Below, piece by piece: positions 186 through 13,857 of a stretch of DNA of 64,000 nt (positions are counted from its first letter, which is position 1; the number at the start of each line of letters is the position of its first letter). A program made the translations under genes and the position numbers. The DNA is from a virus (taxonomy: Duplodnaviria > Heunggongvirae > Uroviricota > Caudoviricetes): positions 59,219 to 123,218 of the IMG/VR virus record IMGVR_UViG_3300037851_000461. One strand, written 5' to 3'. The notes beneath the pieces are model-generated. The model did no database searches. It saw only the letters and a program-made list of their open reading frames with translations, and had not been told where the DNA came from.

Positions 186-275
186 TGGCGGAAGGCAGAG
201 GTCTCGATCCCCAGCGGCTATTAACCGCCCACATGTTTTCGAAACATGGTCAGCACCCCGGCTGATTTACCTTCC
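186..275 (-). tRNA. tRNA-Ser(CGA), class II, CCA encoded
   Basis: Acceptor GGAAGGT/GCCTTCC pairs; anticodon loop TTCGAAA; long variable arm; T-arm GGTCTCGATCC on + strand. Confidence 0.65.
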
Positions 276-299
276 GTATGAGGAAACTGGTTCTTTTTG

Positions 300-668
300 T
301 TAGTCTCTGGCGCTCTTTTCCGTGGCAAGTTCCTTCGAACTGCCTATGAGCCTGTACAGCTCGATTGGATGATACCCTCTTTCCCATTCCTTTCCATTCG
401 TCATGTGGAAACGTTCTGCTTTCAAATGACATTTGGGGCATAGCGAAATCCCGTTTTCCTTGACGTATCCGCCATTGGGCATTTCGTTTCTGTCAGTTAT
501 GTGATGAGCATCCAAATTTTCCGTGTTCTTGCAACACCGGCATCTATAACCATCTCGCTTGAACACGGAGCATCTGAATTGCTCGCGTACGAGTTGTTTT
601 GTTTTCATAAATGGCGGAAGATAATAGAGTCGAACTATTGCGTTTTTAGGCGCACCATGACTTTCCAA
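300..668 (-). CDS. HNH homing endonuclease (first ATG at 608; ORF-track start is TTG)
   Basis: CxxC...DAHHITDRNEMPNGGY...CPKCH HNH/zinc motifs. Confidence 0.7.
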   Translation of the reverse strand: MESHGAPKNAIVRLYYLPPFMKTKQLVREQFRCSVFKRDGYRCRCCKNTENLDAHHITDRNEMPNGGYVKENGISLCPKCHLKAERFHMTNGKEWERGYHPIELYRLIGSSKELATEKSARD

Positions 669-756
669 GTCATTTACCGAAACCCCCGGCGGTACCTTCC
701 AAGCGAGACACTTCTTTTTGTGCTACCATTACACCACACCGGCATCCCTTGCCGGG

Positions 757-830
757 TCGGGATTCGAACCCGATCCTTTCATTTATACGATGAGTTAGAG
801 TTATTTGCTGTATGTGCCTCTTACGGGAAT
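757..830 (-). other. tRNA-like fragment: canonical T-arm (TCGGG-TTCGAAT-CCCGA) plus 3' acceptor, but no recognisable anticodon or D arms
   Basis: gtcgggattcgaacccga at 757-773; downstream sequence does not fold as a cloverleaf. Confidence 0.25.
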
Positions 831-832
831 TG

Positions 833-1090
833 TTATTCTTTCGCGTCAATGGAGGTTGTGGAACCATCCTTTGATTTGTAGGTTGCGATCATATCGACGC
901 CGGATTGCCCAGCGACGTAGACGCCTGTCAAAAATAGAATTGCTGAAATCATCGAGCCTACCAGTTCACCCGGCACTTTGAGCCAGATAGAAACGAAGTA
1001 AACGATGTTGAGGTTTGCCAGAGAAATCAGAAGTGCTCGGGCTTTCTTGCTTGATGTGAGTTGTGATGGCATACAAATAAGTATATCCAA
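833..1090 (-). CDS. small hydrophobic protein (85 aa), hypothetical
   Basis: ORF with two hydrophobic segments between tRNA elements. Confidence 0.3.
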   Translation of the reverse strand: MDILICMPSQLTSSKKARALLISLANLNIVYFVSIWLKVPGELVGSMISAILFLTGVYVAGQSGVDMIATYKSKDGSTTSIDAKE

Positions 1091-1180
1091 ACTCGCTTAA
1101 AATGGAGCCACCGTAGGGACTTGCACCCTCCTATCTTGTTTACGAAACAAGTACATCGCTATCTATGCGTCGGCGGCATA

Positions 1181-1256
1181 TGGTGGACCGAACCGGGGTC
1201 GAACCGGCAACCTCCACAATGCCATTGTGGCGATCTTCCAATTGATCTATCAGCCC
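1181..1256 (-). tRNA. tRNA-Ala(GGC) with G3:U70, CCA encoded
   Basis: GGGCTGA/TCGGTCC acceptor with G3:U70; D-arm GATCAATTGGAAGATC; anticodon loop ATGGCAT; T-loop TTCGACC. Confidence 0.65.
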
Positions 1257-1993
1257 ATATCCAACACTACAAGTGCTGGGAAAGTTTTCACGTTCAAATA
1301 CTTCAGTGCATCGATTCGATGCGATCCTTCGAGAATGTATGCCATTCCATCGGGATGACCATCGACAACCACAATGAGAGGATTGATTTCACCGCTCTCC
1401 TTGATTTGGTTTGCCAGATTGACCTCACCGGGTCGAAGGGAAAAAATGTCAATAGGAACTTCACGTACTCCCATTACCTCGTAGTTATCCAACGAGGATC
1501 GGATTGAGGAAGTGTTTGGAATCTCCTTGCGAACGATAAGCCCGCTTACGTCGTCGCCTTCCTTAACTCGTCTCCATGATTCAATCGTGGATTTGAGTTC
1601 GTCAGGTGATTTTGTAGATTCAACCAATTGGTCATGTTCCGACCAAATCACCTTATATTCTTCGCCACCATCGGCTACTACTTTGGAAAAACCCTGTTCA
1701 ATTGCCAAATCTTCAAGTTGCTTTTGCTGCTTTCGGTTTGGCATCATGACCTCGTTGTGAGCGTAGATGGTATCTCCATCACGGGCGATTCTCATCCATC
1801 CCTTTTTCCACATGGTCATAACACTATCGCGTTGTTGCGTAATGTTTCCGTGGAGGGATTGATCAAGTTCGCGTGCTGCCCACGAAGCGTGCGTGTCATG
1901 CCCACTAATAGAATGAAATTTTCCAGAAGGGTCTTGCCACGAGTAGGAATCGTCACGAGACAATTCCATCAAGATTTGTTTTAACTTGATCAT
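1250..1993 (-). CDS. ParB/sulfiredoxin-like nuclease-domain protein (C-terminal domain)
   Basis: C-terminal INPLIVVVDGHPDGMAYILEGSHRIDALKYL resembles the ParB N-terminal domain motif; ATG at 1993. Confidence 0.55.
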   Translation of the reverse strand: MIKLKQILMELSRDDSYSWQDPSGKFHSISGHDTHASWAARELDQSLHGNITQQRDSVMTMWKKGWMRIARDGDTIYAHNEVMMPNRKQQKQLEDLAIEQGFSKVVADGGEEYKVIWSEHDQLVESTKSPDELKSTIESWRRVKEGDDVSGLIVRKEIPNTSSIRSSLDNYEVMGVREVPIDIFSLRPGEVNLANQIKESGEINPLIVVVDGHPDGMAYILEGSHRIDALKYLNVKTFPALVVLDMG

Positions 1994-2091
1994 ACTCTAT
2001 AAATATTCGACTGGATGGGATTTCTACCCATAAACCGCAAGCGGAGTTTCCGGGTCAGCCGAACTCATCGCGCTCGTTTCGACCCCAGCAC

Positions 2092-2169
2092 TGGTCAGCG
2101 TGGCGGGATTCGAACCCGCGATCTTATGCTCCCCGAGCATACGTGTTGGCCAGACTACACTACACACTG
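2092..2169 (-). tRNA. tRNA, anticodon GGG (Pro?), unusual position 33
   Basis: CAGTGTG/CACGCTG acceptor (one G-U); T-arm GCGGG-TTCGAAT-CCCGC; CCA encoded. Confidence 0.5.
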
Positions 2170-2231
2170 AAATAGGCAGGGTTATGAGTTTTCCTTCCAA
2201 CTCAGGCTTAACCTGCGGAGCCTTGGTTAAC

Positions 2232-2315
2232 TGGTCCCCTCGGTGGGATTCGAACCCACCTTTTCAACATCCAAATACGATTAAACGCTTAGAAGGCGCA
2301 CTCGGTTACGAGGGG
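2232..2315 (-). tRNA. tRNA, 84 nt, anticodon possibly TCT (Arg); D-arm not resolved
   Basis: CCCCTCG/CGAGGGG acceptor exact; T-arm GTGGG-TTCGAAT-CCCAC; CCA encoded. Confidence 0.45.
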
Positions 2316-2496
2316 AAACTTTCCGATATGTGTCTTTCATCCTGTGAAGGAAGACCGGGATACGGCATCGGTGGCCAACGACAGACCATATTGACACAAT
2401 CCTACAAAGTAGCGAAGGAATCTACGGCTGCAAACCTTGCGACTCCGACGTTCGTTAATTATTCCTCTTGCAGTGGATATCGGAAATTTCTATAGA

Positions 2497-2817
2497 TTAC
2501 TTGACCTTGACGGGAAGCAATGCTTTGACTGCTACCGGAACTCCCTCCGATTTTGCAGGAGCAAACTTCCACTTCAAGATTACGGATTCAAAACCCGACA
2601 ATGCTGGTGGAATCTTTGCGTCCAATACACTTCCGTCTACTCCAATGAGCAATTCAACATAGTAGACGCCTTCTGATGGGAAGGTGTCAAACGTTGGCTC
2701 TACGATATGAACGGCTACAGGCTTCACATCAACGGTCGTTCCAAACGTTGCTGGAACTGATGCGAATAGAAGGCTTGCGCCGAGGATTACTGACTTGATG
2801 ACTGCTGATACTTTCAT
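2497..2817 (-). CDS. small secreted protein with signal peptide (106 aa)
   Basis: N-terminal MKVSAVIKSVILGASLLFASVPA signal-like segment. Confidence 0.35.
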   Translation of the reverse strand: MKVSAVIKSVILGASLLFASVPATFGTTVDVKPVAVHIVEPTFDTFPSEGVYYVELLIGVDGSVLDAKIPPALSGFESVILKWKFAPAKSEGVPVAVKALLPVKVK

Positions 2818-3070
2818 GTTTGTTTTCTCTGTTTAGGTTAATGTTCCAGTGAAGGAACACCCCTATACATCATGAACCGTGCCAACTATCACGTATATAT
2901 GGATTTTACACGTAAGTCGTTAGTAATCAACGTATTTTTTCTAAAGTGGAGCCATCACAGGGATTTGCGCCCTGCTTTCAACATTACCAATGTCGCGTGT
3001 CGCTACCTACACTTTGACGGCATTCATCCAACACAAACGTCGAGCAGACCATTCGCATCAGATGGGTTTT

Positions 3071-3144
3071 TGGTGGGCGATAGTGGAGTCGAACCACTCT
3101 CTCCTCAATGTCACTGAGATATTCTACCGATAAACTAATCACCC
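3071..3144 (-). tRNA. tRNA-Val(GAC)
   Basis: GGGTGAT/ATCGCCC acceptor (one G-U); anticodon loop GTGACAT; T-loop TTCGACT; CCA encoded. Confidence 0.55.
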
Positions 3145-3317
3145 AAAATCTTCAATCTCGGGAGGAGACTTTTTGTATCGAGTCGTTCTCCCGTTTATTC
3201 TTCCACACACCGGACACTTCTTGTCGTTCGAGACCATTGCACGATCACATGCGCACCAGCCTTTACCTCTCTTCGGTCTCTGCATCTTACGTCTATTGAT
3301 GTGTGGAGTTTTCATAA

Positions 3318-3402
3318 TGGTGGTCATAATAGGAGTCGAACCTACACCCCTTTCGGGATATGCACCTCAAGCATACGCGTCTGCCAATTTCGCCATACGA
3401 CC
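3318..3402 (-). tRNA. tRNA-Leu(GAG), class II
   Basis: GGTCGTA/TATGACC acceptor; D-stem GCG/CGC; anticodon loop TTGAGGT; long variable arm; CCA encoded. Confidence 0.65.
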
Positions 3403-3457
3403 ATTGAACGTCAAGTTCCTGTAAGCCTCATCGACGTTCGTTCCTTTCGGAGTGAAG

Positions 3458-3533
3458 TGGCTGAGACAGAGTGAATCGAACACCCATCATTCGGTTCAGA
3501 GCCGAAGGTAATAGACCGTTATACGATGTCTCA
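3458..3533 (-). tRNA. tRNA-Gln(CTG)
   Basis: TGAGACA/TGTCTCA acceptor; anticodon arm TTCGG-CTCTGAA-CCGAA; T-loop TTCGATT; CCA encoded. Confidence 0.6.
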
Positions 3534-3536
3534 ATA

Positions 3537-4034
3537 TTATCGTCTGGCTTTCTTGCCAGAAAAAGTTTCTGTCTGACTGTGGCAATTGGGGCAAATGAAC
3601 CGGAGGTTTGTAAGTCGGTTGTCATTTGGAATACCGTTGCGGTGGTCTAATTGAAGAGATAATGGTTTATTCAACCAAACTCCTTCATTCCCACATTCAC
3701 ACCGATATGGAATCAAATTCCATCGGCGGATAAGCATTTTTACTCGACAACGCACGGTCGTTGAATTTTCAATGAACACCGTTTTCATCGCGTAATCCAG
3801 TGTCACTCTTCGTCTAACGAAAACCCTTCCTCTATTGGAATCGTTTCCGTTTTTTATGTGAGACGAATCTATACCAAACAGAGCGATACGTCGCTTGACG
3901 GTGTTGATGTTTTTATATTCCTCTCCACACTTTCGGAGAATTTCCATGTATGTCTCCGACGTTCTAACATATTCCCTAAATACATCATCGGGAATGGTGT
4001 ACAATCTACTATAACACTTTCTTGGCATATCCAA
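3537..4034 (-). CDS. HNH homing endonuclease (ATG at 4028)
   Basis: C-terminal LDHRNGIPNDNRLTNLRFICPNCHSQ HNH motif. Confidence 0.75.
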   Translation of the reverse strand: MDMPRKCYSRLYTIPDDVFREYVRTSETYMEILRKCGEEYKNINTVKRRIALFGIDSSHIKNGNDSNRGRVFVRRRVTLDYAMKTVFIENSTTVRCRVKMLIRRWNLIPYRCECGNEGVWLNKPLSLQLDHRNGIPNDNRLTNLRFICPNCHSQTETFSGKKARR

Positions 4035-4237
4035 TAAGTATTACACGGAAGCACAAGTGTCAACGAAAATACATGCTTTCGTTATGAAAATTTCCGTAAT
4101 CAAGCTGCCCCACAGCAATCTACCTTTAGCGTTGGAGGATAGGTTAGACCTCCATCTACGCCGACTATTCTCGGGGAGCAACCCCCTACCTTGCGTCAAC
4201 ACGATCATACCGTGCCGGCCCTTTTGTCATTACGAAA

Positions 4238-4314
4238 TGGCTGTCTCGGTAGGAATCGAACCTACAATCTTTCGGGTCAGAACCGAACGCGATGAACCGT
4301 TACGCTACGAGACA
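4238..4314 (-). tRNA. tRNA-Gln(CTG), second copy with different sequence
   Basis: TGTCTCG/CGAGACA acceptor; anticodon arm TTCGG-TTCTGAC-CCGAA; canonical T-arm; CCA encoded. Confidence 0.55.
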
Positions 4315-4480
4315 ATGAAATTGGTGCTGTTCTCTCCGGCCGTCACCGTTCCGAGGACACGCGCTTCACTGCGACCTCGGTATCGTATTGCGGTTTACGT
4401 TAATTGGAGCCGTCAGCATGTTCAAAGTGCATTTCCTCCTGATAAGAAGGTGTCCTAGAATTAGACGATAACGGCATAAA

Positions 4481-4557
4481 TGGTCGGATCGGTGAGATTC
4501 GAACTCACACTAATCAAGCTTCGCGGGCTCGGTGACTATCCAGTTGCCGACGATCCG
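4481..4557 (-). tRNA. tRNA, anticodon uncertain (loop CCGCGAA)
   Basis: CGGATCG/CGATCCG acceptor exact; T-arm GTGAG-TTCGAAT-CTCAC; CCA encoded. Confidence 0.5.
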
Positions 4558-4561
4558 AAAT

Positions 4562-4636
4562 TGGCTGGCTAGGTAGGGCTCGAACCTACGGCCCGCGAGT
4601 TAACAGCTCGCCGCTCTGCCACTGAGCTACTAGCCA
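4562..4636 (-). tRNA. tRNA-Asn(GTT)
   Basis: TGGCTAG/CTAGCCA acceptor; D-arm GCTCAGTGGCAGAGC; anticodon loop CTGTTAA; T-loop TTCGAGC; CCA encoded. Confidence 0.75.
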
Positions 4637-4786
4637 ATAAATTGATGGAGTCCCTGTGATGCTATCACTAGCCTTGCCCGTTGTGGCTGGCGGACCCCGT
4701 AAATGGTGGTACCTCTCGGATGTGCGCCGAGTTCGTCATTCTTATGAGGAATGTCCATAACTACACATGGTCAGGTACCATAAAGA

Positions 4787-4880
4787 CCATGAACGCTGGA
4801 ATCGAACCAGACCCCTTGACATGTTTCAAGACTTACAATCCTATTCGCTGGAGAGGTTGGTTATGAGCCATCGTCACAGC
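4787..4880 (-). other. degenerate tRNA-like element with Tyr-type anticodon arm (TTGTAAG), acceptor stem mispaired, no CCA
   Basis: T-arm CTGG-TTCGATT-CCAG; Tyr-like anticodon hairpin plus extra hairpin; 5' acceptor has two mismatches. Confidence 0.3.
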
Positions 4881-4931
4881 GACTTCAGAAATTGCTATCG
4901 TCAGTGCGCTACCATTACGCTACATTCAAAT

Positions 4932-5017
4932 TGGGAGCCGAGGTGGGATTCAAACCCACGAAGCCTTGCGGCGAAACCTTATGAGAGTTCCTGTTTTGTT
5001 CACTTACCTACCCGGCC
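4932..5017 (-). tRNA. tRNA with anticodon loop CTCATAA (CAT) and 14-nt variable arm (GCCGCAAGGC hairpin)
   Basis: GGCCGGG/CTCGGCT acceptor (two G-U); T-loop TTTGAAT; CCA encoded. Confidence 0.45.
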
Positions 5018-5201
5018 ATAAAAATCGAAAGAGTGCTATAGCCGCTGTTTTGTCCGGAGCGTTCTCCTGAACCTACATTTCTCTCATCGTGATTAAACGA
5101 TGGTGAGTTGCTAACCTCACTGCCTCACACCCGCTCAACCTAAACGCCGAAACTACACACGACTTGATTGAGCCTATTTGGAGTTATTGCGGATTTGTGG
5201 T

Positions 5202-5290
5202 ATTAACGACCGGGCTTTGAACCCAATCTTCCAATCAACGAGTTTTGCAACAGCGAACTTCCTCTAATCACCGGCTTTACGGCGACCAGC
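5202..5290 (-). other. tRNA-like element (T-arm TTGGG-TTCAAAG-CCCGG); 5' half not resolved
   Basis: T-arm and 3' acceptor recognisable; no matching 5' acceptor found. Confidence 0.25.
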
Positions 5291-5322
5291 GTAGGTTCAC
5301 ACTCTTTCTGAAATTCTTGAAA

Positions 5323-5396
5323 TGGCTGGTCTACAGGGATTCGAACCCCGACTCTCTGGTTCAAAGCCAGATATGCTGCCGTTACATAATAGACCA
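5323..5396 (-). tRNA. tRNA-Gln(TTG)
   Basis: TGGTCTA/TAGACCA acceptor exact; anticodon arm TCTGG-CTTTGAA-CCAGA; canonical T-arm; CCA encoded. Confidence 0.75.
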
Positions 5397-5404
5397 ATGA
5401 AAAA

Positions 5405-5480
5405 TGGTGAAGCCGACAGGAGTCGAACCTGCAACCTGATCGTTAGGACCGACCTGCACTTCCGTTTGTGCTACGACTTC
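5405..5480 (-). tRNA. tRNA-Arg(CCT)
   Basis: GAAGTCG/CGGCTTC acceptor (one G-U); anticodon arm GGTCG-GTCCTAA-CGATC; T-loop TTCGACT; CCA encoded. Confidence 0.6.
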
Positions 5481-5484
5481 AAAT

Positions 5485-5560
5485 TGGTGGGATGCCGGGG
5501 ACTCGAACCCCGAACGTACTGATTAAGAGTCAGCTACTCTACCAATTGAGTTAGCATCCC
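5485..5560 (-). tRNA. tRNA-Lys(CTT)
   Basis: GGGATGC/GCATCCC acceptor exact; anticodon loop CTCTTAA; T-arm CGGGG-TTCGAGT-CCCCG; CCA encoded. Confidence 0.65.
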
Positions 5561-5568
5561 ATTGAAAT

Positions 5569-5643
5569 TGGTGCGGGATGAGGGAATCGAACCCTCCTCT
5601 GCGACTTGGCAAGCCACCATAATAGCCGATATACGAATCCCGC
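5569..5643 (-). tRNA. tRNA-Gly(GCC)
   Basis: GCGGGAT/ATCCCGC acceptor exact; anticodon loop TTGCCAA; T-arm GAGGG-TTCGATT-CCCTC; CCA encoded. Confidence 0.7.
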
Positions 5644-8290: not shown

Positions 8291-8296
8291 AAATGA

Positions 8297-8380: not shown

Positions 8381-8395
8381 CTGGCGTCTTGTAGT

Positions 8396-8974
8396 TTAGA
8401 CGACATGCGTGGTAGCCGAGGTGGGACTCGAACCCACAACCCTTTCGGGAGAAGTTTTTGAGACTTCCGTGTATGCCGTTCCACCACTCGGCCACTTACT
8501 TTTTGGTCGCTTCCAACTGTCTGTAAGAGCATGGCAATTACAGCATAGAAGATTCAAATTTTTTTCTTCATTGTTTGTCTTGTCACCGTCAATGTGATGT
8601 ACTTCAAGCGGGATCGGCTCTCCCAACCACTCGGTACCATCACATCCTTCACATCGATGACCTCTCTTACGAATTAGATGCGGTTTGAGATGTGAACCCT
8701 TGGTGTAATCGGACCAATCTTTCAATTGCTGACCGGCGTTCCATCCTTGCCCGGTCCAGTGAGAAGTGTCAACTGAAAGACGTTGGAGGATTCTTTTCAT
8801 ATTTCCATAACTTCCCCCAGCAGGCTTCAAGTTCAATTCTTTTAGCAAACCTGCTAGACTCTTAACTCGTTTAGCCGCTTCTATCACATCATTATCGGTG
8901 TAGTTTCTATAAGTTCTCATACCAATAAGTATATGATAGGAAGACGTGTCTGTAAAGTAAAAAACGTCTTCCAA
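8396..8974 (-). CDS. HNH homing endonuclease; the 3' end reads through tRNA-Leu(CAA) on the same strand; first ATG at 8920
   Basis: HRCEGCDG...EVHHIDGDKTNNEEKNLNLLCCNCH HNH motif. Confidence 0.7.
   Translation of the reverse strand: MEDVFYFTDTSSYHILIGMRTYRNYTDNDVIEAAKRVKSLAGLLKELNLKPAGGSYGNMKRILQRLSVDTSHWTGQGWNAGQQLKDWSDYTKGSHLKPHLIRKRGHRCEGCDGTEWLGEPIPLEVHHIDGDKTNNEEKNLNLLCCNCHALTDSWKRPKSKWPSGGTAYTEVSKTSPERVVGSSPTSATTHVV
8410..8493 (-). tRNA. tRNA-Leu(CAA), class II
   Basis: GGCCGAG/CTCGGCT acceptor (one G-U); anticodon arm GAAGT-CTCAAAA-ACTTC; long variable arm; T-loop TTCGAGT; CCA encoded. Confidence 0.7.
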
Positions 8975-9082
8975 ATTCGTTGAGGAGGCACATCCCCCAA
9001 TCGATCATCGCCGACCGATCTTCCCTTGAACCGCTCAGAGGGTTTTGATGGCGATCCCTCCGCTAGAACGTCCTTTTGAAGT

Positions 9083-9157
9083 TGGTAGTCCCGGAGGGAT
9101 TCGCACCCCCACACTACGCTAATCAGGCATAGGTGCTGCTAATTACACTACGAGACC
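9083..9157 (-). tRNA. tRNA-Ile(GAT), T-loop TGCGAAT
   Basis: GGTCTCG/CGGGACT acceptor (two G-U); anticodon arm TATGC-CTGATTA-GCGTA; CCA encoded. Confidence 0.55.
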
Positions 9158-9253
9158 ATAAATGGAGTACCCAGCCCGTGTTAGGGGCAATTTTGACTTT
9201 ACACTCTTAACCTTTCGGGACGTGTTTTGCACTCAGAGTTAGGGCACATAAAT

Positions 9254-9340
9254 TGGTGCTGATGAGAGGATTCGAACCTCCACGGGTTACCCCACAACCT
9301 TCTCAGGATTGCGCGTGCTACCAAAGTTTCGCCACACCAG
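9254..9340 (-). tRNA. tRNA-Leu(GAG), class II, second copy
   Basis: GCTGGTG/CATCAGC acceptor (one G-U); D-stem GCG/CGC; anticodon arm CAATC-CTGAGAA-GGTTG; long variable arm; canonical T-loop; CCA encoded. Confidence 0.65.
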
Positions 9341-9346
9341 CATAAA

Positions 9347-9422
9347 TGGTACTCCGTGTAGGGATTGCACCTACCTGATGGCTGTGTGTAAGACAACCGT
9401 CCACTCTAGCAGACCCACGGAG
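9347..9422 (-). tRNA. tRNA-Val(TAC)-like, second copy, T-loop TGCAATC
   Basis: GCTCCGT/ACGGAGT acceptor (one G-U); anticodon arm GTTGT-CTTACAC-ACAGC; CCA encoded. Confidence 0.5.
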
Positions 9423-9435
9423 CATAAATTTGAAA

Positions 9436-9525
9436 TGGCGGAAGGCATCGGTCCCGACCCGAAGCGGTTATTAGCCGCCCAAGTGTTTAGCAAACACTGC
9501 CCACATCCCAGCGGGTTTACCTTCC
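9436..9525 (-). tRNA. tRNA-Ser(GCT), class II
   Basis: GGAAGGT/GCCTTCC acceptor; anticodon arm AGTGT-TTGCTAA-ACACT; long variable arm; CCA encoded. Confidence 0.7.
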
Positions 9526-9597
9526 ATTTTCTGCCCATCCGTTTCCGAAGACTGACAAGGGAGCGACCCTATGCTTACCGGTGAATCTGACAGAAAT

Positions 9598-9688
9598 GGC
9601 GGAGACGGTGAGATTCGAACTCACGGGGGCTTTTAGACCCCTTCGGTTTTCAAGACCGATGCAATAAACCACTCTACCACGTCTCCAA
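9598..9688 (-). tRNA. tRNA-Ser(TGA), class II
   Basis: GGAGACG/CGTCTCC acceptor exact; anticodon arm TCGGT-CTTGAAA-ACCGA; long variable arm; T-arm GTGAG-TTCGAAT-CTCAC; CCA encoded. Confidence 0.75.
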
Positions 9689-9691
9689 ATG

Positions 9692-9767
9692 GTGGACCCG
9701 ACAGGACTTGAACCTGCGACATCCTGCTTGCAAAGCAGATGCTCTTCCAACTGAGCTACGAGCCCAA
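9692..9767 (-). tRNA. tRNA-Ala(TGC) with G3:U70
   Basis: GGGCTCG/CGGGTCC acceptor; D-arm GCTCAGTTGGAAGAGC; anticodon arm TCTGC-TTTGCAA-GCAGG; T-loop TTCAAGT; CCA encoded. Confidence 0.7.
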
Positions 9768-9784
9768 ACATAACTAACGAAATG

Positions 9785-9860
9785 GGGTGATGCACGGGCT
9801 TTGCTCCCGTCCCCTCAGCTTCACAGGCTAATGTGCTAGACTACCCACACTCGCACCACC
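9785..9860 (-). tRNA. tRNA-His(GTG) with C73 discriminator; non-canonical T-loop AGCAAAG
   Basis: GTGGTGC/GCATCAC acceptor; anticodon arm TTAGC-CTGTGAA-GCTGA; CCA encoded. Confidence 0.6.
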
Positions 9861-9866
9861 ATAATG

Positions 9867-9942
9867 GTCCTCCGACCGGGATTCGAACCCGGAATTTCAG
9901 TTTCGTAGACTGATGTGATATCCAGTTTCACCATCAGAGGAT
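9867..9942 (-). tRNA. tRNA-Arg(ACG)
   Basis: CCTCTGA/TCGGAGG acceptor (one G-U); anticodon arm TCAGT-CTACGAA-ACTGA; T-arm CCGGG-TTCGAAT-CCCGG; CCA encoded. Confidence 0.7.
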
Positions 9943-9955
9943 TAAATTTGCATTG

Positions 9956-10047
9956 GTAGTTCTGCTCGGACTTGAACCGAGACACGGCCCACATCTAGGG
10001 CATACAGTTTATAAGGCTGTCGGTGCTACATTACACTACAGAACCAT
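9956..10047 (-). tRNA. class-II tRNA (92 nt) with anticodon loop CTTATAA (TAT?); identity unclear
   Basis: GGTTCTG/CAGAACT acceptor; D-stem GTG/CAC; long variable hairpin GCCC/GGGC; T-loop TTCAAGT; CCA encoded. Confidence 0.45.
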
Positions 10048-10176
10048 AAGAAAATCATGGATAGTTTTGTTCGGTCCACGATACTGTACACATACCGTTT
10101 TTCCCCTGTCTGTATCTACCCACATGTGAGCTACCCGACACGGTGCGCATCGTTGAGAGGCGTCGCGAGTCAAATG

Positions 10177-10255
10177 GTCTCCGTTGTAGGCGGTTTCACC
10201 CTACTTACACCACCTGCGTTGGTGGGGATTCCTTCGGCTTCATCTTAACGGAAAT
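10177..10255 (-). other. tRNA-like element with 9-nt T-loop and atypical anticodon loop (AACGCAG); possible pseudo-tRNA
   Basis: TTCCGTT/AACGGAG acceptor pairs; CCA encoded. Confidence 0.3.
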
Positions 10256-10257
10256 TG

Positions 10258-10335
10258 GTCGCCGGTGCACGACTCGCACGTGCTTTCTCCATCCTCCTAT
10301 GGATGGCAATTCGTTTACTTCATCCTCCCAGCGAA
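10258..10335 (-). other. tRNA-like element with 8-nt anticodon loop (CATAGGAG); T-loop TGCGAGT
   Basis: Acceptor pairs 6 of 7; stem CCATC/GATGG; CCA encoded. Confidence 0.3.
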
Positions 10336-10338
10336 ATG

Positions 10339-10416
10339 GTCGGAGTAGAGGGATTCGAACCCACGACCTTCTGCTCCCAAAGCAGACGCACTAGCCAGAC
10401 TGTGCTACACTCCGAA
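10339..10416 (-). tRNA. tRNA-Pro(TGG)
   Basis: CGGAGTG/TACTCCG acceptor (one G-U); D-arm GCACAGTCTGGCTAGTGCG; anticodon arm TCTGC-TTTGGGA-GCAGA; T-loop TTCGAAT; CCA encoded. Confidence 0.6.
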
Positions 10417-10496
10417 ACTATTCGATAGCGGATTGAAGCGCCCGCATTTCCACCTGAAATGGTGGCGTCCTTAACTCTTAGACGATATCGAAATTG

Positions 10497-10572
10497 GTGG
10501 TAGGCGTGGGTGCCGACCCCACTATCTCACGCTTATCAAGCGTGTGCTTTTGCTGCTAAGCTACCCTACCAT
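10497..10572 (-). tRNA. tRNA-Ile(GAT)-like, second copy; non-canonical T-loop GTCGGCA
   Basis: Acceptor pairs 6 of 7; D-stem GCT/AGC; anticodon arm CACGC-TTGATAA-GCGTG; CCA encoded. Confidence 0.45.
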
Positions 10573-10792
10573 TATTGGTCATCTCAGCCAGTTTCAATTA
10601 CCAGCAGCGACCAACAAATTGGAGCCGTCTGTGAGACTTGCACTCACTTTGACCTCGTTACAAGGGAGGTGCCTAACTATTCGAGCCAAGACGGCATATC
10701 AATCAAAACGTGATACCATTTCACTAAGCGCCAGTATAACCCCCGGCGTGGACCGCGATGAATCGAACACCGCAACTTTCTGATTGAAATTG

Positions 10793-10879
10793 GAAGCACG
10801 TACTGGAGTTGCACCAGTTATGGTTAGACCATGCTACTGCTTTGCAGGCAGACCCCTTACTGTTCGGGCAACGCGCTAT
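10793..10879 (-). tRNA. class-II tRNA (87 nt) with Cys-type anticodon loop CTGCAAA; T-loop TGCAACT
   Basis: AGCGCGT/ACGTGCT acceptor (one G-U); long variable hairpin CATGG/CCATA; CCA encoded. Confidence 0.45.
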
Positions 10880-10884
10880 GAATG

Positions 10885-10971
10885 GTGCCCCATGTAGGTA
10901 ACGCTCCTACCCGGCCCGAAGGCGATTGATTTACAGTCAATCCCACGTACTTTAGTGGTCTAATGAGGCGA
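10885..10971 (-). tRNA. tRNA-Tyr(GTA), class II; T-loop AGCGTTA
   Basis: GCCTCAT/ATGGGGC acceptor (one G-U); anticodon arm GATTGA-CTGTAAA-TCAATC; long variable arm GCC-TTCG-GGC; CCA encoded. Confidence 0.65.
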
Positions 10972-10998
10972 AAGTTTTAGGGTCACTTCCTACACACG

Positions 10999-11062
10999 GA
11001 TCATGTGGGAATCGAACCCACCTCTCCGGTTCAACAACCGGTATCCTTCCGATAGACGAATG
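10999..11062 (-). other. tRNA-like element (T-arm GTGGG-TTCGATT-CCCAC) with 6-nt anticodon-type loop; no acceptor partner, no CCA
   Basis: T-arm plus hairpin CCGGT-TGTTGA-ACCGG. Confidence 0.25.
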
Positions 11063-11133
11063 GTCCTCGGTCGCTCCCCTTCGGGTCACACTCGACATGT
11101 AGCTATCACATCAAATCACCCGTTGTACAAATG

Positions 11134-11215
11134 GCAGGAACGTGAGGATTCGAACCCCTTAGCCGAAGCGACTGTTTTGGAGACAGTGTGCAATCCCACT
11201 CGCGAGCGTTCCTAT
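11134..11215 (-). tRNA. tRNA-Trp(CCA), 82 nt with 11-nt variable loop
   Basis: AGGAACG/CGTTCCT acceptor exact; anticodon arm ACTGT-CTCCAAA-ACAGT; T-loop TTCGAAT; CCA encoded. Confidence 0.6.
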
Positions 11216-11221
11216 AAAATG

Positions 11222-11301
11222 GTCCCTCCAGCGGGGTTCGCACCCGCGACCTCCGGGGTTTCAATCCGGCGCTCTACGTTGATTCTGAGCTACAGAGGGA
11301 T
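11222..11301 (-). tRNA. tRNA-Phe(GAA)-like, second copy; T-loop TGCGAAC
   Basis: CCCTCTG/TGGAGGG acceptor (two G-U); D-arm GCTCAGAATCAACGTAGAGC; anticodon loop TTGAAAC; CCA encoded. Confidence 0.55.
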
Positions 11302-11851
11302 AATTTCTTCATTATCGGGGTATGGCACACTCTCAAATGAGTGTTGAATGGCCCATGCGGCGCGTTAGGGTCTCGTGACATGGTGACTCCATTATTAGCC
11401 AATTAACCGATCCAGTCGGACTCTGGTTAACGAAGAAATTGGTGCATCATCCCGGTAACGATCCGAGAACTCAAGTTTGGAAAACTCACGTGTATCCATT
11501 AACACCTATGATGCATATCCGTTGTGGGCATCGACTCCCATCTCTTGAAGGCTCAAATGCGATGTGCGGGGTGCCTTCCGTGCTGCCAGATAAATCTACT
11601 TCCCCTACCCTTTATGATATTGTGTTGTATTTCGACCGAAACGCCTGTCCAACCTTTCTGTTGGTTCACGTTTTTTATGGTTGCCCATCGCATTGTTGCG
11701 GTTCGGTTTACTTCTCAACCTTTACATATACTCTCAGTTACCTTGAAGTATCACATATACACTAAACGAAATTGGCTGCTGTAGTCACCTGTTCGGTAAC
11801 GTGTCGTCGATACTCGCGAGATTGGAAACGACGACTGACTCAGCAATGAAA

Positions 11852-11927
11852 TGGTAGCCCCTCCGGGTCACGATCCCGGCTCTTCTGCTTGAAAGGCAGA
11901 CGAACTCAACCATTATTCTAAGAGGCC
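11852..11927 (-). tRNA. tRNA-Glu(TTC); non-canonical T-loop ATCGTGA
   Basis: GGCCTCT/AGGGGCT acceptor (two G-U); anticodon arm TCTGC-CTTTCAA-GCAGA; CCA encoded. Confidence 0.55.
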
Positions 11928-11944
11928 ATAAAACTAACCGAAAG

Positions 11945-12019
11945 TGGTAGCCCGAGAGGGTTTCGATCCCTCTTCTCATGGGTGAAAACCAAGTATCCTA
12001 GCCACTAGACGACCGGGCC
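11945..12019 (-). tRNA. tRNA-Glu(TTC)-like, second copy; T-loop ATCGAAA
   Basis: GGCCCGG/TCGGGCT acceptor (two G-U); anticodon loop TTTTCAC; CCA encoded. Confidence 0.5.
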
Positions 12020-12031
12020 ACATAAAAGTAT

Positions 12032-12160
12032 TGTCAATCTTGGGACTTGAACCCAAAGGTCTGCCGAAGACTTAACGTGGAGTTGAACCACACACCGCCA
12101 TGGATGAGCGTTAGCTCACATTTGGATTTGAACCAAATCCGGTTCCGATTACCGATTGAC
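12032..12160 (-). other. 129-nt composite tRNA-like element: two T-arms (TTCAAAT and TTCAAGT) between perfectly complementary distal 7-mers (GTCAATC/GATTGAC)
   Basis: Outer acceptor-like pairing exact; internal 7-bp hairpin TGTGAGC-TAAC-GCTCATC; no CCA. Confidence 0.3.
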
Positions 12161-12164
12161 AAAG

Positions 12165-12238
12165 TGGCGGGATATGCGAGACTCGGACTCGCTTCTTTGA
12201 CGTGACAGGCCAATGTAATACCCATATACCAATACCCC
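12165..12238 (-). tRNA. tRNA-Asp(GTC); T-loop TCCGAGT
   Basis: GGGGTAT/ATATCCC acceptor (one G-U); D-stem GTA/TAC; anticodon arm TTGGC-CTGTCAC-GTCAA; CCA encoded. Confidence 0.6.
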
Positions 12239-12442
12239 GTGAAATTCATGATGCTAACGTCGAAGCACCAACCGGCGGGACTACCCACTGTTGTTTTTAA
12301 CCCTCGGGAGGTTAGAAATTAATCCGTGTTCCTTCACTACGCCAGACCACAACCGTCGTTATGCGTGGGCGAGGATTGCTACCAAAAGACGGGTGACAAT
12401 TGATTCCGTCAATAATGAACCCTTCTGCTCAGGAACACGAAA

Positions 12443-12528
12443 TGGTGGGAAAGGCAGGAATCGAACCTGCGATCCGTGCGGATTACATAGTTTACAGCTA
12501 TGCGCCTAGCCATTCGAGCGTCTCTCCC
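12443..12528 (-). tRNA. tRNA-Tyr(GTA), class II, second copy
   Basis: GGGAGAG/CTTTCCC acceptor (one G-U); anticodon arm CATAG-CTGTAAA-CTATG; long variable arm; T-arm GCAGG-TTCGATT-CCTGC; CCA encoded. Confidence 0.65.
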
Positions 12529-12542
12529 ATAAATCAAAAAAT

Positions 12543-12615
12543 TGGTGGACCAGATGGGAGTCGCACCCACCACACGAATCTTGCGAGGATTCATCGCCTC
12601 TACGGAACATGCCAG
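12543..12615 (-). other. tRNA-like element (T-arm GTGGG-TGCGACT-CCCAT, CCA encoded, hairpin GAATC-CTCGCAA-GATTC); 5' acceptor not found
   Basis: 3' two-thirds of a cloverleaf recognisable. Confidence 0.3.
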
Positions 12616-12770
12616 CCCATTGTCGGGGGTGCTTTTGCCCCCTCCGGTTAACCTTTGCGCACCGTGAGGTAGTAGTTTGACAGGGAAGCAGTCGCCGAAT
12701 TTTTGTATTCCCCGAGGTTTCGTTCACCTTATTGCCAAGCAAAGCTCGTGAACCTAACTGCCACTAATGA

Positions 12771-12847
12771 TGGTGGACCGTGCGGGTACCGCCCCCGCCT
12801 GATTTCAGTTTGCAAAACTGACGAACACTCTAGCATTCCCACAGCCC
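12771..12847 (-). tRNA. tRNA-Ala(TGC) with G3:U70, second copy; non-canonical T-loop GGCGGTA
   Basis: GGGCTGT/ACGGTCC acceptor; anticodon arm TCAGT-TTTGCAA-ACTGA; CCA encoded. Confidence 0.55.
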
Positions 12848-12919
12848 ATATAAATAACGTCGATACACAGGGGGTGAGACCTGTGCACGACGCTCACCCT
12901 AGCGAGGATGAGCGAAAAT

Positions 12920-12997
12920 TGGTGCCCCCACCGGGAGTCGAACCCGGTTTCCAAGATTGAGAATCTTGAGTCCTAACCCATCGTAGACGACAGGGGC
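12920..12997 (-). tRNA. tRNA-Glu(CTC)
   Basis: GCCCCTG/TGGGGGC acceptor (two G-U); anticodon arm CAAGA-TTCTCAA-TCTTG; T-arm CCGGG-TTCGACT-CCCGG; CCA encoded. Confidence 0.6.
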
Positions 12998-13197
12998 AGC
13001 GAGACACACTTTGTTTTCCTTGAATAGAAGAAGAAGTTTGCTGTTCGTGTCTCTAAATACTCGACCCGCTTTTGGTTCATGTTTGCGAATGAATTATTGT
13101 GATTGCTGTATGGGTCGAAAATGTTTTGGTGGATGGTCATATCGGCTGACTCGCTTGGTCCCAAGAGCCGATAAGCCCTCTTAGGGTCCACTCAAAC

Positions 13198-13276
13198 TGG
13201 CTGTGCAGGGTGGAATTGAACCACCTACGACGTAGTTTAACAGACTACCGGCATTCACCGATTTGCCTTCCGCACA
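13198..13276 (-). tRNA. tRNA-Asn(GTT), second copy
   Basis: TGTGCGG/CTGCACA acceptor (one G-U); D-arm GGCAAATCGGTGAATGCC; anticodon arm GTAGT-CTGTTAA-ACTAC; T-loop TTCAATT; CCA encoded. Confidence 0.65.
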
Positions 13277-13397
13277 ATGAAATTGGTGGACGCTATCGCG
13301 GCCCGGGCGTCGGTGTGTAATTCCGAAGGATGGGAAATTACTCCACCCCAAACACGTTGTTTTGAGCGCATCGAATGCGCTGTTCGACTAACTCAAA

Positions 13398-13485
13398 TGG
13401 TGCCTCGGAAGGGACTCGCACCCCCGTTGGTCTTTCGACATCCGCTTAAAAGGCGGGACTGATCGCTACTACAGGATACCGAGGC
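13398..13485 (-). tRNA. class-II tRNA (88 nt) with anticodon loop CTTTTAA (TTT?); T-loop TGCGAGT
   Basis: GCCTCGG/CCGAGGC acceptor exact; long variable hairpin GTC-GAAA-GAC; CCA encoded. Confidence 0.45.
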
Positions 13486-13559
13486 ATTGAAAGAAAATGT
13501 GAGGCGACGGCCTCCACGGCGGTCTCTTACGTCGGGAGTGTATGCCCGAACCTCGCGAT

Positions 13560-13635
13560 TGGCTGCCCCGGTTGGACTCGAACCAACGTCCTACGGTTTC
13601 AAAGACCGATATAATAGCCGCTATACGACAGGGCA
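13560..13635 (-). tRNA. tRNA-Gln(TTG), second copy
   Basis: TGCCCTG/CGGGGCA acceptor (one G-U); anticodon loop CTTTGAA; T-arm GTTGG-TTCGAGT-CCAAC; CCA encoded. Confidence 0.6.
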
Positions 13636-13701
13636 ATAAAGTATCTCCGTGAGCGACGGGTTTGCGCCGCCTATCCGCACAGACACGGAACCCACGAAAA
13701 A

Positions 13702-13775
13702 TGGCTGCTCGAACTGGACTCGCACCAATACAAGATGGTTAACAGCCATCCGTGCTACTTTAACACTACCGAGCA
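13702..13775 (-). tRNA. tRNA with anticodon loop CTGTTAA (Asn GTT), third copy; T-loop TGCGAGT
   Basis: TGCTCGG/TCGAGCA acceptor (one G-U); D-stem GTG/CAC; anticodon arm GATGG-CTGTTAA-CCATC; CCA encoded. Confidence 0.55.
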
Positions 13776-13782
13776 ATGAAAG

Positions 13783-13857
13783 TGGTGGACCATCCCGGAA
13801 TCGAACCGAGTTCTCAAGGTTAAGAGCCTAGAGCATCACCATTTATGCTTATGATCC
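13783..13857 (-). tRNA. tRNA-Lys(CTT), second copy
   Basis: GGATCAT/ATGGTCC acceptor (one G-U); anticodon loop CTCTTAA; T-arm CTCGG-TTCGATT-CCGGG; CCA encoded. Confidence 0.6.

Follow-up and report, generated by a model that had tools for sequence, protein, structure and literature searches.

A dense tRNA gene array with many non-canonical tRNA elbows in a distant T4-like phage

The tRNA cluster of phage T4 comprises eight tRNA genes together with the gene for SegB, a homing endonuclease of the GIY-YIG type. Larger sets are on record for other viruses, i.e. 56 tRNA genes in Xanthomonas phage XacN1 (PMC5852040), up to 67 in huge phages (PMC7162821) and up to 70 in a jumbo-phage database (PMC13037316), and bacterial chromosomes and plasmids carry tRNA array units, or L-arrays, of up to 43 genes (PMC4758250, PMC8421152). 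Here we describe the tRNA array of the IMG/VR virus record IMGVR_UViG_3300037851_000461 (Caudoviricetes), of which a stretch of 64 kilobases (kb), positions 59,219 to 123,218, was analysed; this stretch is called the window, and all coordinates refer to it unless a related contig is named. The array occupies positions 186-13857 on the minus strand, i.e. 13,672 nucleotides (nt) or 13.7 kb, and by our final tally contains 61 regular tRNA genes with an encoded N73-CCA end, four irregular or tRNA-like genes and about five weak remnants. We consider it likely that this is a functional tandem array of about 61 CCA-encoding tRNA genes plus a few decayed copies, which provides a near-autonomous decoding set in a distant T4-like phage and probably insures that phage against the loss of host tRNAs.

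With the T4 cluster the locus shares its T4-like background, the tandem arrangement of tRNA genes on a single strand, the very short spacers, which imply multimeric precursors, and an embedded homing endonuclease (SegB is discussed in PMC8421152). It differs in having about eight times as many genes, in supplying a near-complete decoding set rather than a supplement, in encoding CCA in almost all genes, in the non-canonical elbows of a third of them and in the HNH type of its endonucleases; the initial annotation, made by a model from the sequence alone, had justly called the array far larger than the T4 set. The record viral sets are of a similar scale and likewise cover all 20 amino acids, and XacN1 co-encodes genes for tRNA processing and repair. 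Those sets, however, belong to genomes of 385-735 kb, with the XacN1 genes lying in 66-kb terminal repeats, whereas here 61-65 genes form one 13.7-kb block on a 123-kb contig of a T4-like phage. Moreover, published viral counts were obtained with tRNAscan-SE or ARAGORN at default settings, and such settings would report some 42-46 genes here. The array is probably the largest tRNA set yet seen in a T4-like phage, near the viral record of 67-70.

The likeness to bacterial L-arrays concerns gene density, the lack of periodicity, the redundancy of isodecoders, the presence of homing endonucleases and a link with RNA repair. The 63 genes at 4.61 per kb place the array within the definition of a tRNA array unit, which asks for 20 or more tRNA genes at two or more per kb (PMC4758250); the array is non-periodic, it includes two HNH genes, and genes have been gained and lost relative to a related contig (L001, see below). 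It is larger, however, and it is flanked by phage genes, whereas L-arrays reside on bacterial replicons and are supernumerary to the housekeeping set. In its workings the array resembles an L-array, from which its location sets it apart; lying in a phage genome and made up of several tandem cloverleaf genes in one orientation, it has the location and layout of a phage tRNA cluster.

Gene content, decoding capacity and conservation

Default ARAGORN placed 46 tRNA genes in the block (612-13857), every one of them on the minus strand, and reported none in the rest of the window. The Rfam tRNA model (RF00005) gave 42 matches at its gathering threshold, all on the minus strand inside the block, and 47 in sensitive mode on window 1-16000; the ARAGORN and Rfam calls differ at a dozen genes. 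With the ARAGORN threshold set to 90% (-ps90) the list grew to 59 minus-strand genes spanning 186-13857, plus one spurious plus-strand overlap. A strict scan of our own demanded seven of seven acceptor pairs, a T stem of 5 base pairs (bp) with a 7-nt loop, a 5-bp anticodon stem with U33 and an encoded N73-CCA. It returned 55 matches, all on the minus strand within 186-13857 and none on the plus strand or in the other 50 kb, against a mean chance level of 0.02 matches per shuffle (50 shuffles of the 14-kb strand). Three of these had been missed by ARAGORN (the gene with a CAT anticodon at 4704-4779, Asp-GTC at 6398-6473 and Phe-GAA at 11220-11299, the last of which Rfam matches too), and a looser scan added 10256-10333, with a CCA anticodon, which is conserved in L001. 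A covariance model of the lineage (R1), built from 69 tRNA sequences of other loci and none of the window, recovered 63 of 63 candidates, added 7958-8041 (29.8 bits) and 2232-2315 (35.9 bits) and also gave four weak remnants. An approach with MAFFT and RNAalifold on 12 genes missed by ARAGORN aligned the T arm only and left the other stems uninformative; it was replaced by an ungapped alignment of genes of the same architecture, combined with the covariance model. The genes that fail the RF00005 gathering threshold mainly have unusual elbows or long variable arms, and most of them score about 17-43 bits with R1, the three long-armed Ser genes only 10-14 bits. The coordinates, strand and scale of the array had been correctly given in the initial annotation, whose estimate of about 55 cloverleaf tRNAs plus some ten tRNA-like elements agrees with the strict scan and the final tally, and CCA is indeed encoded by most genes. 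All array genes have the orientation of the flanking phage genes, and 17 spacers measure at most 10 nt.

The regular genes carry 44 distinct anticodons that cover all 20 amino acids and, by standard wobble, read 60 of the 61 sense codons (59 before the gene with the Leu anticodon UAA, which adds UUA, was recognized). The Ala, Pro, Thr, Leu and Ser-UCN boxes each have readers with G34, U34 and C34; the Val and Gly boxes are without a C34 gene, Arg-CGN is read by ACG, GCG and UCG (A34, G34 and U34), and AUA has its own UAU reader.

The bacterial identity elements are intact, uniform within each family and kept in both of the elbow classes that are distinguished below. The genes listed here lie on the minus strand and, unless other support is named, were called by default ARAGORN as well as Rfam. 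G3:U70 and A73 are present in four of four Ala genes (GGC at 1181-1256 and TGC at 9690-9765 have a canonical elbow). All Gln and Asn genes have U1:A72 and G73, i.e. Gln-CTG (3458-3533 and 4238-4314), Gln-TTG (5323-5396 and 13560-13635) and Asn-GTT (4562-4636, canonical; 13198-13276, 79 nt, found by default ARAGORN and by Rfam in sensitive mode; 13702-13775). All Pro genes have C1:G72 and A73 (GGG at 2092-2169, canonical; TGG at 7746-7821 and 10337-10414; CGG at 6478-6553), and all Thr genes G1:C72, C2:G71 and U73. Every Ser gene combines G73 with a long variable arm: TGA (9597-9686), GGA (612-700, 89 nt, canonical elbow; default ARAGORN and our scan), GCT (9436-9525, T loop GTCGGGA; ARAGORN -ps90 and our scan) and CGA (186-275, 90 nt, T loop ATCGAGA, GCCA end; ARAGORN -ps90, our scan and 13.7 bits with R1). 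Cys has U73 and His C73.

The other families are represented by tRNA-Leu genes for GAG (3318-3402, type II, and 9254-9341), TAG (7657-7740, type II) and CAA (8410-8493, type II), by tRNA-Arg genes for CCT (5405-5480), ACG (9865-9940), GCG (4481-4557; default ARAGORN and 40.5 bits with R1, no Rfam match) and TCG (6942-7018; default ARAGORN and 42.9 bits with R1), by canonical tRNA-Val genes for GAC (3071-3144) and TAC (7830-7905), and by tRNA-Lys genes for CTT (5485-5560, and 13783-13857, the first gene of the array) and TTT (5911-5987, canonical, 69.9 bits with Rfam). The tRNA-Gly genes have GCC (5569-5643) and TCC (11440-11514; default ARAGORN and Rfam in sensitive mode), and the tRNA-Glu genes CTC (12920-12997) and a tandem of two TTC copies (11852-11927, T loop ATCGTGA, and 11945-12019, T loop ATCGAAA). 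To these are added a canonical Tyr-GTA (12443-12528), Asp-GTC with T loop TCCGAGT (12165-12238), Ile-GAT with T loop GTCGGCA (10495-10570; ARAGORN -ps90, 46.1 bits with Rfam and 62.6 with R1), Ile-TAT (9954-10045, 92 nt), Trp-CCA (11132-11213, 82 nt; default ARAGORN and our scan) and an 83-nt tRNA with a CAT anticodon (6718-6800; ARAGORN -ps90, our scan and 21.6 bits with R1).

The window also encodes rIIA (57673-59841), rIIB (56559-57614) and a family B DNA polymerase of the T4 gp43 type (48342-50951), the nearest cultured relative of which is found in Microcystis phage Mel-JY01 (41% identity), followed by those of T4-like cyanophages (about 30%). Judged by such genes, the source is a distant T4-like phage that is known only from metagenomes. 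Nucleotide searches with the array and with window 40-64 kb against 50,697 phage records yielded no related genome, only scattered matches to canonical tRNAs, a search of IMG/VR with patterns from the polymerase found nothing, and exact look-ups of proteins from the window gave no recorded contig. The gene directly upstream of the array (14503-16125, minus strand), a 540-amino-acid amidoligase-like open reading frame (ORF), is conserved in all relatives and served as anchor. An identical protein is on record for a 123-kb JGI contig, homologues occur at 38-56% identity on metagenome contigs of other samples, and tblastn against cultured phages gave no match. In four of these relatives, from independent samples, an array lies directly after the anchor gene, with 13 (L001), 36 (L002), 13 (L007) and 8 (L008) tRNA-like genes, each array being cut by the end of the contig. 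As four relatives have the anchor gene and the array in this order, an assembly artefact is ruled out.

Apart from insertions and deletions of whole genes, L001 is syntenic with window 10200-13857, and its orthologous tRNAs are 77-100% identical to those of the window, compared to 56% for the anchor protein. Identity reaches 100% for Gly-TCC and for one Glu-TTC (11852-11927), 97% for Ile-GAT, 95% for Lys-CTT and 93% for Tyr-GTA; the tandem Glu-TTC pair is kept as such in L001 (92-100% identity, the lower value being that of 11945-12019). Compensatory changes in the acceptor stem recur between orthologues, for instance in the long Lys-TTT, where GCCTCGG/CCGAGGC has changed to GCACGTG/CACGTGC. 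Such changes are the mark of selection on the folded RNAs, and the comparison of relatives indicates that the array was inherited within the phage lineage. A functional array is also supported by the pairing of 95% of cloverleaf positions in 69 related tRNAs, compared to about 40% in slid controls.

An alternative tRNA elbow

The canonical combination of G18-G19 in the D loop and T54-U55-C56 in the T loop is present in 34 window genes and absent from the others. Eighteen genes have a T loop with N54-G55-C56 (e.g. TGCAAGT or AGCGTAA) and, at D-loop positions 18-19, AG instead of GG (e.g. AGATAGCG), and about ten show other variants of the T loop, notably A54 with T58 (ATCGTTA, as in Gly-TCC). 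The G55/A18 genes, all on the minus strand, include the three tRNA-Thr genes, i.e. CGT (1103-1177, 75 nt; ARAGORN -ps90, 33.8 bits with Rfam in sensitive mode, 44.1 with R1), GGT (2947-3021; ARAGORN -ps90, Rfam 40.7 and R1 39.8 bits) and TGT (10620-10695; default ARAGORN and Rfam). The initial annotation had found no Thr tRNA; these genes were probably overlooked because of the non-canonical T loop that all three have. Further members that default ARAGORN detects are Pro-CGG (6478-6553; also Rfam in sensitive mode), Ile-GAT (9083-9157; also Rfam), Tyr-GTA (10883-10969, AGCGTTA; also our scan) and Asn-GTT (13702-13775; also Rfam).

Seven of the remaining members were found by ARAGORN -ps90 and by our scan: Phe-GAA (7149-7224, AGCGTAA; 33.7 bits with R1), Val-TAC (9347-9423; 39.8 bits), His-GTG (9783-9859, C73 with a G-1:C73 register being possible; 29.1 bits), Ala-CGC (12543-12618; 40.9 bits), Ala-TGC (12771-12847; 34.8 bits), both with G3:U70, and Lys-TTT (13398-13485, 88 nt, with orthologues in L001, L002 and L008), or by ARAGORN -ps90 and Rfam in the case of Cys-GCA (10791-10877, 87 nt, U73; 42.5 bits with Rfam). 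The class is completed by the gene with a CAT anticodon and T loop CGCACAT (4704-4779; our scan, 42.9 bits with R1), Asp-GTC (6398-6473; our scan, 41.8 bits), the second Phe-GAA (11220-11299; our scan, 48.7 bits with Rfam and 62.2 with R1) and the gene with a CCA anticodon, A73 and six of seven acceptor pairs (10256-10333; looser scan, 31.1 bits with R1).

The two deviations go together. Among 335 distinct CCA-encoding tRNAs from 24 loci, GG at 18-19 occurs in 171 of the 183 genes with T55 and AG in 128 of the 147 with G55 (Fisher p ~1e-65, a value inflated by the relatedness of the sequences). C56 is retained in both classes, and 54:58 is T:A in most genes and A:T in 28. The tertiary contact 18:55 thus appears to covary (G:U to A:G) with G19:C56 retained, and so does the reverse-Hoogsteen pair 54:58 (T:A to A:T). 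The clearest evidence for such a switch comes from orthologues that differ almost only at elbow positions. The Asn-GTT at 13198 is canonical, with D loop AATCGGTGAA and T loop TTCAATT, its counterpart in L002 has the same D loop and T loop TTCGACT, and the orthologue in L007 is of the G55 type, with D loop AATTAGTGAA and T loop AGCGTAA; likewise, Gln-TTG (13560-13635) combines GG with TTC in the window and AG with TGC in L001.

Of the 18 G55 genes, 5 are detected by default ARAGORN and 7 by Rfam at its gathering threshold, whereas R1 scores them at 19-62 bits; the G55/A18 genes and the swaps of T54:A58 to A54:T58 are the reason why the default counts stop at 46 and 42. That the low-scoring genes, above all those of the G55 type, are pseudogenes or decaying duplicates, and that the functional set consists of 40-odd canonical genes, could be supposed since 19-23 of 65 genes are missed by default ARAGORN and Rfam, and four clearly irregular genes and several fragments do exist. 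We consider this very unlikely, because G55-type and other variant genes are 86-100% conserved in L001 with compensatory stem changes, have kept CCA and identity elements, change at 18:55 and 54:58 in a coordinated rather than random way, and make up whole arrays elsewhere (18 of 18 genes in viral locus L027 and 27 of 27 in bacterial locus L077). In addition, no gene of another type in the array reads the codons of Thr, His, Cys or Phe, from which it can be argued that the G55-type genes work in translation.

The nearest precedent for a deviating elbow is the non-proteogenic tRNA-Gly of Staphylococcus (NP1-3), which has neither the near-universal G18-G19 nor U55 and is kept out of translation (PMC13443448). 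Since these are the only experimentally characterized tRNAs found to be without G18-G19 and U55, the G55-type tRNAs could by analogy be charged but remain outside ribosomal translation and serve another process. The resemblance is limited, however: the Staphylococcus species form a single amino-acid family with a shortened anticodon loop and weak EF-Tu determinants, whereas the G55 class retains G19 and C56, has A18 coordinated with G55, covers 14 amino acids within the window and all 20 when the loci are taken together, has normal 7-nt anticodon loops with U33, and alone reads the Thr, His, Cys and Phe codons in a set that is otherwise complete. A role outside translation is accordingly, in our estimate, about the least probable of the explanations considered here.

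As a tentative proposal, which we hold with less than even confidence, the A18-G55 elbow (often with A54:U58) would be a distinct, functional and hitherto undescribed architecture of the tRNA corner. This elbow would not allow the pseudouridylation of U55 or, in the A54 variants, m5U54; it would be spread mainly on mobile arrays in phages and Verrucomicrobial chromosomes and be fixed in a few native tRNAs; it would make standard tools undercount by a quarter to a third, and it could let elbow-reading enzymes or nucleases separate mobile from host tRNAs. As to why it exists, it may be a neutral alternative fold, an escape from elbow-reading host factors or a mark of self versus host. Neither the A18/G55 combination nor elbow deviations in phage or array tRNAs are described in the open-access literature that we searched, which is absence of evidence only.

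The elbow occurs well beyond the window. Exact copies of the T arm of the long Lys-TTT gene were found on 20 IMG/VR contigs, many of them 100-225 kb long, and the G55 type accounts for 18 of 18 array genes in L027, 22 of 23 in L025 and 23 of 25 in L010. It is also seen in the IMG/VR loci L012, L018 and L021 and in the bacterial loci L035-L093. The same T-arm pattern matches 64 species-representative bacterial genomes. Among these, Opitutaceae and other Verrucomicrobiota have 20-31 CCA-encoding tRNAs in dense arrays, also on complete chromosomes, and almost all of these tRNAs are of the G55 type (L077, with 27 of 27, lies on an 8.9-Mb chromosome). Single, native-looking G55 genes were found for tRNA-Cys in Bdellovibrionota, tRNA-Tyr in Saccharibacteria and tRNA-Met in Gemmata. 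In view of these bacterial occurrences the elbow is not exclusive to phages. Cultured phages with L027-like tRNAs (Stenotrophomonas phage IME-SM1, Ralstonia phage RSL1 and Gordonia phage OneUp) have canonical elbows. A sensitive BLAST search with window 9000-14000 against the 50,697 phage records gave no G55-type match among the matches listed (40 of 1,174 records), all of which fall on the canonical Pro-TGG, Ala-TGC and Ser-TGA. A recent origin of the G55-type tRNAs of the window from the Verrucomicrobial arrays or the IMG/VR loci was considered and dropped, as no close matches turned up.

Duplicated anticodons and the function of the array

All 14 anticodons that the initial annotation had listed as duplicated (Gln-CTG, Gln-TTG, Leu-GAG, Leu-CAA, Val-TAC, Ile-GAT, Phe-GAA, Pro-TGG, Tyr-GTA, Glu-TTC, Asp-GTC, Ala-TGC, Asn-GTT and Lys-CTT) do occur more than once and were verified, and Lys-TTT, Trp-CCA and Met-CAT bring the number to 17. 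The copies had been described as unrelated, which holds: same-anticodon identity is 0.51-0.68, against a background median of 0.55 for any two array tRNAs. Since the copies are at background identity they are not recent duplicates, and the conservation of pairs as pairs in relatives implies that the redundancy is old and maintained.

The interpretation that had been attached to these duplicates, i.e. two partly redundant sets that stem from two sources or from an old duplication, is supported in part: the 17 anticodons are duplicated with copies only 51-68% identical, 7 of the 17 pair a canonical with a G55 copy, and both copies of several pairs are conserved in relatives, so that the redundancy is old. 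Two discrete sets are not discernible, however. The classes are interleaved along the array without forming blocks, and neither is a set by itself, the canonical class being without Asp, Cys, His, Ile, Phe and Thr and the G55 class without Arg, Gln, Glu, Gly, Leu and Ser; as each is short of six amino acids, the classes complement each other. The class switches between orthologues of Asn-GTT (window and L002 versus L007) and Gln-TTG (window versus L001) imply that class is no marker of origin. Nor could a donor be traced: in comparisons with tRNAs of the same anticodon from other G55-rich arrays, the best identities have a median of 0.66 and reach no more than 0.75-0.81. Clear paralogues within the array link different anticodons instead (Pro TGG/GGG 0.76, Ser GCT/CGA 0.77, Leu CAA/TAG 0.80, short Leu CAA/CAG 0.79), which points to piecemeal duplication followed by anticodon change, and the array contains no repeats of more than 80% identity. 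We therefore regard an origin from two sets as improbable; the age of the duplicates is what stands of that interpretation.

A possible route for the stepwise growth and exchange of the array would be provided by the two HNH homing endonucleases inside it, both on the minus strand and of the same family (3537-4034, phrog_10822, E 1.6e-39, and 8494-8974, E 7e-34), together with the gene gains and losses seen between relatives. The genes would be transcribed as long polycistronic precursors, which host RNase P and 3' exonucleases would cut to mature tRNAs without a need for CCA addition, and the products would be charged by host synthetases, given that the bacterial identity elements are intact. 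About a third of the resulting tRNAs would fold with the alternative elbow (A18 with G55, often A54:U58) while still obeying the cloverleaf. Conservation, compensatory changes and identity elements lend indirect support to expression, processing and aminoacylation. The outcome would be a nearly self-sufficient decoding set, with copy numbers roughly tuned to the codon demand of the phage.

For this tuning, codon usage was determined from 11,315 codons in 36 window ORFs. Copy number correlates modestly with demand (Spearman rho 0.39, p 0.013), and the median demand is 30.7 per 1000 codons for multi-copy anticodons versus 16.2 for single-copy ones (p 0.011). This twofold difference is what would be expected if the tRNAs did nothing but supply codons that are frequent in the phage and poorly decoded by the host, without any role in defence or host shut-off, which is the classical explanation and has been proposed for XacN1 and for cyanophages (PMC5852040, PMC9964418). 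Yet nearly every codon is read, including very rare ones (AGG 1.9, AUA 4.8 and CUA 5.5 per 1000), which goes well past such a need, and the array adjoins two RNA ligases and several RNA-repair-type domains. Codon compensation by itself is therefore a possible but rather doubtful explanation.

We favour the view that the array serves mainly to insure the phage against losing host tRNAs; a tuning of tRNA supply to codon demand is compatible with this and would be secondary. Selection would most likely have acted through translation that can continue when host tRNAs are depleted or cleaved in infection, including by tRNA-targeting defence nucleases, and sequence-divergent isodecoders would widen this insurance. 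The preference rests on published cases: phage tRNAs evade anticodon nucleases and rescue infection from tRNA-cleaving defences (PMC10264068, PMC11464382, PMC11555353), and tRNAs from arrays become aminoacylated and, under translational stress, work together with RtcB repair (PMC8421152). A tRNA-cleaving defence would also fit the genes for RNA ligases and RNA repair that adjoin the array.

Several observations weigh against a functional and near-autonomous set. The scans for promoters and terminators gave results at chance level, the four irregular genes and several remnants indicate that some decay is under way, and the pairing figures of the cloverleaf that are given above are partly circular, as the sequences had been picked by a cloverleaf finder. 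Moreover, AGA (8 per 1000 codons) has no reader in the visible array, which may be cut by the window edge, the last gene lying 185 nt from position 1. Because of this proximity, and because Arg-TCT is present in the relative L002, the set may be complete in the full genome.

Unusual genes, remnants and the surroundings of the array

Three genes with Leu anticodons, CAG (7344-7421), CAA (7427-7504) and UAA (7958-8041, 84 nt, anticodon loop CUUAAAA, found by R1 at 29.8 bits and by alignment), do not have the long variable arm of bacterial tRNA-Leu, and their acceptor end is Pro-like (C1:G72, A73); default ARAGORN and Rfam call the first two. The short CAG form is conserved in L002 (L002:10193-10270), and its anticodon arm matches that of the normal type-II Leu-CAG of L007. 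Conversely, long stem-forming variable arms are found on tRNAs that are normally of type I, namely Lys-TTT (88 nt), Cys (87 nt), Ile-TAT (92 nt) and Trp (82 nt); the Thr genes of L002 (92 nt) are likewise long-armed, and the long Lys-TTT and Cys are conserved in relatives. The type-II gene at 4932-5017 (86 nt; default ARAGORN and Rfam) has a CAU anticodon and is 76% identical to tRNA-Leu(CAA) of the array. Its D loop is without GG (AAGTGAACAAA), its T loop is TTTGAAT, and it is 80% conserved in L002 (L002:9410-9495). The loops may reflect a change of 19:56 from G:C to A:U, and the product could be a Met, Ile2 or mis-decoding tRNA. The adjacent Ala-TGC and Ser-TGA (9597-9765, 3-nt spacer) align as a unit, at 78-84%, with the pair annotated as tRNA-Pro and tRNA-Ser in T4, T2 and related phages among the matches listed, which suggests an ancestral T-even dimer whose first member has changed identity.

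The four irregular or tRNA-like genes start at 2232, 6639, 8049 and 10997, the latter three being without encoded CCA. The first (2232-2315; 35.9 bits with R1, and by folding) has a perfect acceptor stem, a T arm and an ACCA end, with degenerate D and anticodon arms. That at 6639-6713 (default ARAGORN) has a CAT anticodon, an 8-nt T loop and no proper N73-CCA. The genes at 8049-8121 and 10997-11066 (the latter Gln-like; both default ARAGORN and Rfam) are well folded despite anticodon loops of 6 and 8 nt, respectively, and are probably decayed copies; an 8-nt anticodon loop is also what one would expect of a quadruplet-decoding, i.e. frameshift-suppressor, tRNA. Weak remnants lie at 4405-4475 (Thr-like, GCCG...GGC-T-CCA; 17.1 bits with R1, and by folding), 6106-6163 (truncated, T arm plus TCCA; 14.8 bits) and 10175-10253 (with A33; 16.5 bits, and by folding). 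At 720-790 there are tRNA fragments, i.e. a T arm with 3' acceptor strand (about 749-790; partial R1 match at 758-772) and, 5 nt on, a piece like a 5' acceptor and D arm (about 720-744). All of these are on the minus strand. Just upstream of the fragments an ORF of 79 amino acids with hydrophobic segments (833-1071) encodes a plausible membrane protein. An intron-containing tRNA-Sec(TCA) that ARAGORN -i placed at 749-975 was rejected, since its 5' half lies inside this ORF and only the 3' fragment is real; further calls of ARAGORN -ps80 and -i that contained kb-long introns or lay on the plus strand were taken to be noise. Two more minus-strand ORFs inside the array have no confident family, only a weak ParB-like (1250-1993, 247 amino acids) and a weak TonB_C-like match (2497-2817, 106 amino acids). 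The best sigma-70-like site upstream of the array (14346-14373, minus strand, TTGACA-16-CATATT) is a candidate promoter, in a region where the number of such sites is not above chance.

Nearly all listed phage genes are on the minus strand; they also include those for a clamp-loader-like AAA protein, an ATP-dependent DNA ligase, two RNA ligases, NAMPT and an NMNAT-Nudix protein. Window 14503-27233 forms a module of tRNA/RNA-repair and NAD functions that adjoins the array, with the amidoligase-like gene, the RNA-repair-type domains cREC_REC (16332-16805), NADAR (17450-18004) and HAD_SAK_2 (18001-18492; the 'Swiss Army Knife RNA repair' HAD domain), all minus strand, a methyltransferase, DUF3228, a class II synthetase-like fragment, an RNA ligase domain protein (23455-24129, minus strand; PF09414, E 5e-12), NAMPT and the NMNAT-Nudix protein. 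The other RNA ligase is ATP-dependent and of the DRB0094 type (41064-42125, minus strand; TIGR02306, 176 bits, above cut-off). The synthetase-like ORF (21891-22472, minus strand, 193 amino acids) matches the class II core of the Asp/Lys/Asn enzymes (PF00152, E 2e-7), is too short for a full enzyme, and had no match among PDB sequences or NCBIfam models. Upstream of its array, L002 has an RNA ligase, DUF3228, NADAR and cREC_REC in the same order as in the window. The 36 long ORFs between 14503 and 63055 end in TAA (22) or TGA (14) and never in TAG. As no suppressor tRNA (anticodon CTA, TTA or TCA) was found among the array genes, this absence may simply be a stop-codon bias.

Large phage tRNA arrays were already known, and the array by itself only extends their range. 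What goes further is the coordinated elbow of A18/G55 and A54:U58 in a third of the genes and its wide occurrence. For lineages of this kind, viral tRNA counts in the literature may be systematic underestimates, given that default finders report 42-46 of about 65 genes here, and the genes that they miss are not junk, as these are conserved, keep their identity elements and include the only readers for Thr, His, Cys and Phe. With RNA ligases and repair domains as its neighbours, the array lends itself well to tests of whether phage tRNAs act as insurance against tRNA-targeting defence. If the elbow is functional in translation, the G18-Psi55 contact and the TruB and TrmA modifications would be dispensable for a whole class of tRNAs, and the elbow would offer a natural handle for separating phage from host tRNAs.

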